NCBI RefSeq assembly: GCF_044324875.1
Contig: NZ_CP172185.1
Strand: one strand, 5' to 3'
Source: Escherichia coli
Lineage (GTDB): Bacteria; Pseudomonadota; Gammaproteobacteria; Enterobacterales; Enterobacteriaceae
DNA length: 64,000 nt
The stretch's first letter is position 1, and each line of letters begins with the position of its first letter. This document shows positions 42,893 through 43,275 of this stretch, piece after piece. The notes under the pieces were generated by a model. That model was not told the DNA's origin and searched no databases. It saw only the letters and a list, made by a program, of their open reading frames with translations. Made by a program: the position numbers and the translations under genes.

Positions 42893-43003
42893 TGTATCTT
42901 ATATTGTGATATCGGTGCTGCTGCTGTTATTTTTTGTTGTATTTGTGACGAATGGTTAAGAATAAAACATGAGTTGGTGATTATCAGGACAGGTTGCTTG
43001 TAT

Positions 43004-43099
43004 ATGAAGATAACAAAGGCGGCATTTATTTTTGCGCTGTCAGTGTGGAGTGTTGCTGTGATATGTCTTTTATTATTTGTACTGGTTGTTCTGGGATAG
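43004..43099 (+). CDS. Possible small hydrophobic peptide (31 aa)
   Basis: MKITKAAFIFALSVWSVAVICLLLFVLVVLG, below the ORF-track size cutoff; no clear RBS. Confidence 0.2.
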   Translation: MKITKAAFIFALSVWSVAVICLLLFVLVVLG

Positions 43100-43275
43100 C
43101 TATAGTGGAATTATTATTTTTTTAAGACTATGGTTTATATTTTTATTCGGCAATATTTCTGTAAACAATTAAATATCAGAAAGGCGTGTTGTATGCGTGA
43201 ACACGCCTGAGTATGTATACAGAGATTGTTAATTTGGAGAGAATAATTACAGTTGTTATTTATTTGACGTCCTGA

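Follow-up and report, generated by a model that had tools for sequence, protein, structure and literature searches.

Positions 42893-43275 of the 64,000 nucleotides (nt) of Escherichia coli DNA analysed here (contig NZ_CP172185.1; hereafter the window) are bounded by two convergent genes, a helix-turn-helix (HTH) regulator gene on the plus strand to the left and a DinI-like gene on the minus strand to the right. A lambdoid prophage is integrated in mlrA, and the interval lies within it, approximately 0.5 kb from its right end. An earlier reading made from the letters alone (the sequence-only reading) described the interval as AT-rich, and this is correct: it contains 33.2% GC (A100 C38 G89 T156), compared with approximately 44-52% in its flanks. 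The same reading pointed to very short hydrophobic open reading frames (ORFs) in the interval and proposed that they could be leader peptides or small membrane toxins. Here we describe two such ORFs, of 25 and 31 codons. They lie in the 3' tail of a mobile cassette that consists of a YadA-like adhesin gene, the HTH gene and the tail itself, and they are reasonable candidates for two small membrane proteins that annotation has missed. The tail makes up the left 60% of the interval (42893-43111).

Two hydrophobic ORFs follow the HTH gene

The sequence-only reading placed a 31-codon ORF at 43004-43099, and an ATG ORF with exactly these limits is present. It also described a shorter hydrophobic ORF near 42930-42960 that overlaps the first. 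That second ORF exists, with a larger extent than described: it starts with a GTG at 42882, runs to 42959 and has 25 codons. The overlap did not hold up, as 44 nt separate the two ORFs. What the 25-codon ORF does overlap is the 3' end of the HTH gene, by 11 nt that include the stop codon, a layout typical of translational coupling. The 31-codon ORF shares its reading frame with the HTH gene.

Both ORFs had been said to lack clear ribosome-binding sites, which is right for ATG 43004 and wrong for GTG 42882. Five nucleotides upstream of the GTG lies GGGGGA, a good Shine-Dalgarno sequence whose duplex with the anti-Shine-Dalgarno sequence is worth -8.6 kcal/mol; a value of -7 is reached by about 6.5% of random positions in the window. 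RNA folding around the two starts is weak, with values of -5.2 and -7.8 kcal/mol compared with -13.5 +/- 4.8 kcal/mol at random positions.

We measured transmembrane propensity as the best 19-residue window on a Hessa-type insertion scale. The best windows score -4.1 kcal/mol for the 31-codon ORF and -3.3 kcal/mol for the 25-codon ORF. Both products are predicted to be essentially bare transmembrane helices that should insert readily. The 25-amino-acid (aa) peptide has about 5 residues ahead of its helix. The 31-aa peptide begins with an MK.TK layout that carries lysines K2 and K5, and its helix then extends to the C-terminus. Known small membrane proteins usually show this arrangement of MK.TK and a helix after it. 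Both ORFs have a start and a stop codon within the size limit for small membrane proteins (at most 50 codons), and each has a single predicted transmembrane helix beyond what composition accounts for. The idea of small membrane peptides at this locus therefore holds as a sequence property, since both ORFs encode bare helices and are compositional outliers.

The 25- and 31-aa peptides show no paralogy to each other by BLASTP or by a repeat search. An imperfect 18-nt inverted repeat (42916-42933 / 43007-43024, 72% complementary) could let the first ORF base-pair with the second at its start; we set it aside as too weak to build on. The features of the locus are collected in Table 1.

Table 1. 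Features in and around the interval 42893-43275, with coordinates in the window.
Feature	Coordinates	Strand	Basis or remark
Upstream gene, 151-aa sigma-70 region-4-like HTH regulator	42437..42892	+	Pfam PF08281, 30 bits (cut-off 25.7)
Shine-Dalgarno-like GGGGGA	42871..42876	+	5 nt before GTG 42882; holds the G5 tract altered in the fused variant P0022 (see text)
25-codon ORF, GTG start, MLNNVSYIVISVLLLLFFVVFVTNG	42882..42959	+	One predicted transmembrane helix
3' tail of the YadA-like adhesin and HTH cassette	42893..43111	+	BLAST, E. coli genomes
44-nt spacer between the ORFs	42960..43003	+	No codon-phase signal; T/C polymorphism at 42974
31-codon ORF, ATG start, MKITKAAFIFALSVWSVAVICLLLFVLVVLG	43004..43099	+	K-bearing N-terminus, then one transmembrane helix to the C-terminus
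Recombination junction of the window lineage	43100..43111		Alignment with other contexts; extra mismatch T/C at 43101
Lineage-specific AT-rich segment	43112..43275		22 genomes; read as the 3' flank of the DinI-like gene
Hairpin, likely intrinsic terminator of the DinI-like gene	43182..43208	-	Minus-strand fold
Convergent DinI-like gene, 82 aa, last prophage gene before the right end	43276..43524	-	Pfam PF06183, E = 2.4e-19; PGAP

The hydrophobicity of the ORFs exceeds what composition yields

Composition cannot explain the two ORFs. As a null model we used shuffles that preserve local dinucleotide composition. Length alone is unremarkable, because an ATG ORF of at least 31 codons appears in 29-48% of the shuffles. 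When hydrophobicity is considered together with length, the result is different. An ORF of at least 31 codons with a grand average of hydropathy (GRAVY) of at least 2.26 was obtained in 0.06% of shuffles of 42880-43111. Shuffling the whole interval gave this length together with a GRAVY of at least 2.0 in 0.34% of cases. By this test, P < 0.001 for the 31-codon ORF and P ~0.01 for the 25-codon ORF.

The window contains 741 ORFs of 20-60 codons when both strands are counted, and we compared the two ORFs with all of them. In hydrophobicity, the 31-codon ORF ranks first and the 25-codon ORF second. When the best 19-residue windows are compared, the next two places go to the 29-aa ORFs at 54511 and 55119, zorO and zorP, whose products are experimentally established type I toxins. 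A codon-phase chi-square test gave P = 0.004 for the 31-codon ORF and P = 0.03 for the 25-codon ORF, and no such signal was present in the spacer, in the continuation of the HTH frame (42893-43003) or in 43112-43275. This test is partly circular, since the ORFs were chosen for their hydrophobicity.

These comparisons bear on the possibility that the ORFs are without function today, as a relic or a by-product. They could be the two parts of a split 73-aa two-helix protein (from GTG 42882, separated by a frameshift in a T6 tract), a C-terminal membrane anchor that the regulator has lost, or chance frames in a T/G-rich 3' untranslated region (UTR). The whole cassette is biased toward G over C and T over A on the plus strand, and this bias, which favours hydrophobic codons, speaks for such an explanation. 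However, dinucleotide shuffles almost never yield such ORFs, which argues against it.

The tail remains linked to the cassette in every context

We searched 5426 complete E. coli genomes with BLAST. The segment 42880-43111 is present in 183 of them, at 97.8-100% identity and always behind the HTH gene, and the tail is retained in every one of the 183 genomes that carry this gene. The cassette is near-clonal (approximately 98-100% identical). It is found behind prophage tail-fibre genes or in integrase-bearing islands, where it lies beside IS256, ISL3 and aerobactin genes. Across at least 6 different right-hand contexts the tail is kept, and outside contexts of the window type its match stops at 43111. 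The sequence from 43112 to ~43261 occurs in only 22 genomes, all with the same prophage junction. In this lineage, the tail is joined to the flank of the DinI-like gene 8-12 nt past the stop of the 31-codon ORF.

An older form of the tail continues to a GC-rich hairpin, GTGACCGTCCTGACGGTCAC followed by TTTAAAG, approximately 80-100 nt past the stop of the 31-codon ORF. In the older context, this hairpin is followed by a convergent gene for a c-type lysozyme inhibitor. The position of the ancestral hairpin fits a single transcription unit.

Six independent breakpoints or insertions on the right-hand side lie 8, 28, 75, 76, 114 and 130 nt past the stop of the 31-codon ORF. The single event inside the 207-nt ORF region is an IS3 insertion in the 31-codon ORF of strain SFE8. 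If the ORFs were a relic, neither the retention of a start codon with its Shine-Dalgarno sequence nor the sparing of the ORFs by six nearby rearrangements would be expected.

Two different IS256-like ends are inserted at ~75 nt (L002/L005/L006/L009) and 76 nt (L013) past the stop, and both are just upstream of the ancestral hairpin. The distance of at most 1 nt between them points to a hot spot for insertion.

Sequence variation, homology searches and the relic explanation

Several observations weigh against the idea that the two ORFs are genes for small membrane proteins. The Prokaryotic Genome Annotation Pipeline (PGAP) calls no gene in the interval across the contexts inspected. The ATG at 43004 is preceded by a weak, interrupted AGG..GG match, with an anti-Shine-Dalgarno energy of -5.6 kcal/mol. 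One strain, SFE8, tolerates the IS3 insertion in the 31-codon ORF. The cassette also seems to be decaying in the window, where the adhesin gene contains an in-frame stop. The avoidance of the ORF region by breakpoints speaks for the genes, with a binomial P of ~0.02, but this statistic is post hoc and, like that on the variants below, rests on 5-7 events.

The pattern of substitutions also speaks for them, with the same limit. The amino-acid variants of the 31-aa peptide are A6V, F10L, I20M, V28I and L30M, all of which exchange one hydrophobic residue for another. Thus, 5 of 5 variants are conservative, compared with 43% expected of nonsynonymous changes, and this result (P ~0.015) is likewise post hoc. 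The sole variant seen in the 25-codon ORF is an in-frame deletion of CTG. We saw no synonymous single-nucleotide polymorphism (SNP) in the small ORFs. All 6 SNPs found in the 28 copies of the HTH gene are nonsynonymous, and the gene and the tail do not differ in SNP density. Because the annotated HTH gene likewise shows only nonsynonymous changes, the cassette is too young for a test of purifying selection.

Homology searches add to these points. With a 41-aa query against 5.8e9 proteins, homologs of the peptides were found only in the same unnamed cluster. A HMMER search with a 220-aa fusion of the regulator and both frames (described below) against 1.84e9 representatives returned no relative below ~82-90% identity, which makes a cross-species comparison impossible. 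A degenerate back-translated pattern (ALSVWSVAVIC) had 0 matches in 100,044 species genomes. Scans of both peptides against Pfam, NCBIfam and PHROGs gave nothing significant.

The sequence-only reading had named conservation as a check on these ORFs. Within the cassette there are 5 conservative and 0 synonymous variants, and no diverged relatives were found. Conservation cannot settle the coding status of the ORFs, because there are no relatives outside the near-clonal cassette. The 31-aa ORF has been called by automatic predictors on short contigs only, and without a name. In the family scans of the peptides, a 'Doppel' match (E = 0.016) was rejected as a hydrophobic-segment artefact. A literature search for the peptide strings gave no match, and a search for a prophage YadA-like cassette gave nothing relevant.

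The lack of homologs, annotation and synonymous polymorphism, together with the tolerated IS3 insertion, would also be expected of a relic. Further support for that explanation comes from the reading frames themselves. The TAA at 42890-42892 alone keeps the HTH frame from staying open for 69 further codons, which include the 31-codon ORF. In one assembly (GCA_028598215.1, locus L028, 1501-2163), a G5 to G4 change together with a T6 to T7 change makes one 220-aa ORF, P0022, out of the HTH gene and the two small frames. The altered tracts correspond to window positions 42871-42875 (G5) and 42931-42936 (T6). The T7 allele alone would give the 73-aa two-helix protein from GTG 42882. P0022 may be a real variant or a homopolymer sequencing error.

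Two features of the locus do not agree with an ancestral fusion. The linker in the HTH frame has no codon-phase signal, scores +4.5 kcal/mol and contains 6 Cys in 37 residues, so it is not membrane-like. In addition, the split form (G5, T6 and TAA) is present in all 28 sequences read, whereas the fused form is known from one assembly and is possibly a sequencing error. Taking both sides together, a relic is the main rival explanation, a serious possibility at clearly less than even odds.

The fused variant also raises the possibility that the tail conditionally extends the regulator. In such a scheme, read-through of the TAA or slippage at the G5 and T6 tracts would produce a membrane-tethered HTH protein by phase variation or recoding. 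The HTH gene and the 31-codon ORF are in one frame with a 69-codon open frame between, and one genome carries P0022. However, two separate slips would be required. Neither G5 nor T6 varies in 28 sequences, and tracts of this length are short for phase variation by slipped strands. In the topology of P0022, the positively charged loop would also come to lie in the periplasm. The efficiency of TAA, the highest among the E. coli stop codons, counts against read-through. We consider an extension of the regulator to be very unlikely.

Leader peptide and type I toxin explanations

The ORFs are short and intergenic, as leader peptides or attenuators of a downstream gene would be. The gene order does not agree with this proposal of the sequence-only reading, because no context has a co-oriented gene downstream for the ORFs to regulate. 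The next gene is convergent in each case, DinI-like here and the c-type lysozyme inhibitor gene in the older context. There are no alternative hairpins or significant RNA structure (fold z = -1.5), no terminator-like site on the plus strand of the interval and no match to an Rfam leader family. We therefore give a leader function almost no weight.

To judge the proposal of small membrane toxins, the window offers an internal positive control in the duplicated zorO-orzO / zorP-orzP locus at 54190-55208. Here, zorO and zorP are identical 29-aa ORFs (MDTLTQKLTVLIAVLELLVALLRLIDLLK) at 54511-54600 and 55119-55208 on the plus strand, and their peptide string appears in PMC6669753. Rfam detects the OrzO-P RNAs at 54190-54265 and 54800-54873 on the minus strand. 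The zorO leader is a structured 5' UTR of 174 nt that pairs with OrzO (PMC5397157, PMC3919570).

One or both ORFs in the cassette tail could by analogy be a type I membrane-depolarising toxin that is controlled by an unseen antisense RNA and stabilises the cassette or the prophage. The peptides are small and extremely hydrophobic, lie in AT-rich intergenic mobile DNA and exceed zorO/zorP in hydrophobicity. As small hydrophobic ORFs of fewer than 60 aa, they have the size of the toxins in type I toxin-antitoxin systems. The antisense RNA might come from a promoter-like site on the minus strand at 43008..42980. This sigma-70-like site matches at 9/12 positions, and a transcript started there would run antisense to the 25-codon ORF as well as to a 5' leader of the 31-codon ORF, if there is one.

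However, promoter-like matches occur at or below the number expected by chance (2 found, 3.6 expected). There is no promoter-like site on the plus strand in 42893-43003, and no independent promoter or terminator unit is visible. When Rfam was run at permissive thresholds on 42300-43700 (E <= 10), only noise was returned, and the same database identified OrzO-P twice elsewhere in the window. The start regions of the two ORFs are unstructured (-5.2 and -7.8 kcal/mol) compared with those of zorO (-16.2 kcal/mol) and zorP (-15.4 kcal/mol). Neither peptide matches a toxin family in Pfam, NCBIfam or PHROGs. The C-termini of the peptides lack charged or polar residues; charged residues contribute to ZorO toxicity (PMC9860968). 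The toxin proposal thus finds no positive evidence at this locus, where the hallmarks of the zor-orz loci in the same window are absent, and we regard it as unlikely.

A candidate pair of inner-membrane peptides, possibly made with the regulator

We tentatively favour the reading that the tail encodes two small inner-membrane peptides co-expressed with the regulator, and we assign it a probability of roughly 0.45. From the sequence we infer transcription through the tail, translation and membrane insertion of both products, and any function that they may have, as follows. The regulator mRNA would run on through the tail. Ribosomes would start the 25-codon ORF at GTG 42882, inside the last regulator codons and behind GGGGGA, by translational coupling. 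The 31-codon ORF would be started at ATG 43004 in an unstructured, U-rich region. The lysine-bearing N-terminus (K2, K5) of the 31-aa peptide would be oriented toward the cytoplasm.

Both peptides would be inserted into the inner membrane post-translationally, as for YohP, a 27-aa E. coli protein that is inserted after its translation by the signal recognition particle (PMC7549839). Once in the membrane, they could serve as accessory factors that modulate membrane proteins or the membrane state, made together with the regulator, and would not form an autonomous toxin-antitoxin unit. The biology of small membrane proteins has been reviewed (PMC12648545). Small membrane peptides modulate sensors and transporters, and YohP depolarises the membrane (PMC12648545, PMC12719787).

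A more specific version would make the regulator and the two bare-helix peptides a new regulator/membrane-peptide module that controls the adjacent adhesin. The peptides would tether or gate the regulator, or slippage at G5/T6 would switch it between a soluble and an anchored form of the kind that P0022 resembles. We think it highly improbable that the module works in this way.

If the ORFs are translated, they are two new, unannotated small membrane proteins on a mobile adhesin-regulator cassette. This cassette moves between prophage ends and aerobactin-bearing islands in avian-pathogenic, extraintestinal and some Shiga-toxigenic E. coli. Because peptides of this kind can modulate sensor kinases, transporters or the membrane potential, translated products could influence how the adhesin and the regulator are used. 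If the ORFs are not translated, the interval is an ordinary AT-rich 3' flank at a recombination joint. The practical value of the finding is modest; it illustrates that the gap in small-ORF annotation reaches into accessory DNA.

The probable terminator flank of the DinI-like gene and the prophage end

The right 40% of the interval, 43112-43275, is read as unrelated to the peptides and as the lineage-specific 3' flank of the DinI-like gene. On the minus strand, the hairpin at 43182-43208 has a 9-bp stem (AGGCGUGUU/AACACGCCU) and a 9-nt loop and is followed by UUCUGAUAUUU. It lies 68 nt past the stop of the DinI-like gene and has the features of a Rho-independent terminator. A consensus terminator scan missed it because the loop is longer than 8 nt, which is more than is typical. 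From its fold and position, the hairpin is likely the intrinsic terminator of the DinI-like gene. The short ORFs in this segment (26 and 20 codons) are unremarkable, and a blastn search of the interval against phage and plasmid collections gave no match.

Homology to the core genome resumes at 43739, where the 5' part of mlrA is found, with btsS and btsR beyond it. The point at which core homology resumes places the lambdoid prophage within mlrA, with its right end at ~43738. The mlrA copy next to btsS is reduced to its first 22 codons (MALYTIGEVALLCDINPVTLRA; 43739-43806, minus strand). Approximately 43525-43738 lies between the DinI-like gene and this remnant. Two adjacent tRNA genes at 7412-7562 on the plus strand (Rfam RF00005, 67.8 and 31.2 bits) are probably prophage-borne.

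The adhesin and regulator genes of the cassette

The product of 42437-42892 is named 'sigma factor-like helix-turn-helix DNA-binding protein' by PGAP. Only sigma region 4 was detected in the regulator, and region 2 was not. The protein is an orphan, with no homolog below ~90% identity in 1.84e9 or 5.8e9 proteins, and it has no match in phage records by tblastn. A weak match (E = 3e-4) links its N-terminal 75 residues to phrog_6585, whose function is unknown. An AlphaFold2 model made without an alignment had a predicted local distance difference test (pLDDT) score of 37 and was unusable.

The YadA-like trimeric autotransporter gene at 41095-42375 carries an in-frame TAA at 41929-41931 (...DETRT*TDSS...). 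This stop splits the gene into ORFs of 277 aa and 144 aa. In other genomes the adhesin gene is intact, encodes 372-547 aa and has mosaic passenger domains. An IS66-family element, ISEc8 (tnpA, tnpB and tnpC, minus strand), occupies 38287-40620 and separates the tail-fibre region from the adhesin gene. Strain Ch1, the closest of the complete genomes, lacks ISEc8 at that site.

A perfect GC hairpin, CCCGGGGGG AGT CCCCCGGG, lies at 42398-42425, between the adhesin stop and the HTH start. Directly 3' of it are TATAAT and GAGG, 12 nt before the ATG at 42437. This region could be a processing site, an attenuation site or a promoter.

Comparison with known systems

The two peptides resemble ZorO and ZorP in being small and hydrophobic (25 and 31 aa compared with 29 aa), in their intergenic, tandem arrangement and in their occurrence in pathogenic E. 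coli. The zor genes differ in having their own promoters, a structured 5' UTR of 174 nt, a divergent antisense small RNA and charged residues in the peptide, none of which was found at 42893-43111.

A second comparison is with prophage 'morons'. The superinfection exclusion protein gp15 of phage HK97 is a membrane protein of this type, encoded near tail-fibre genes. Like such genes, the cassette is accessory cargo behind the tail-fibre genes at a prophage end, with predicted small inner-membrane products. Unlike them, the cassette is also found in non-phage islands beside aerobactin genes; its peptides are much smaller, and no homology was found.

The gene layout, and only the layout, also recalls extracytoplasmic function (ECF) sigma factors and their anti-sigma factors, since a sigma-region-4-like gene is followed by an overlapping single-pass membrane ORF. 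The differences are substantial. The regulator has region 4 without region 2, and the 25-aa peptide is too short for a cytoplasmic anti-sigma domain. An ECF sigma/anti-sigma pair was therefore rejected, with only region 4 detected and about 5 residues before the helix.

Another parallel is with small E. coli membrane proteins such as YohP (27 aa), MgrB and YoaI (PMC7549839, PMC12648545, PMC12719787, PMC11429745). In contrast to these, the peptides described here have no similarity to named small proteins, are predicted from sequence and belong to a mobile cassette in ~3% of E. coli, not to the core genome. They are also encoded by two ORFs in tandem and in different frames, the first of which overlaps the stop of the upstream gene. 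The likenesses lie in size (25-31 aa), in the single helix and in a short N-terminus that in one of the two peptides is positively charged. Like genes for small inner-membrane proteins (at most 50 aa), the two ORFs are missed by annotation pipelines and lie near or within a regulatory operon.

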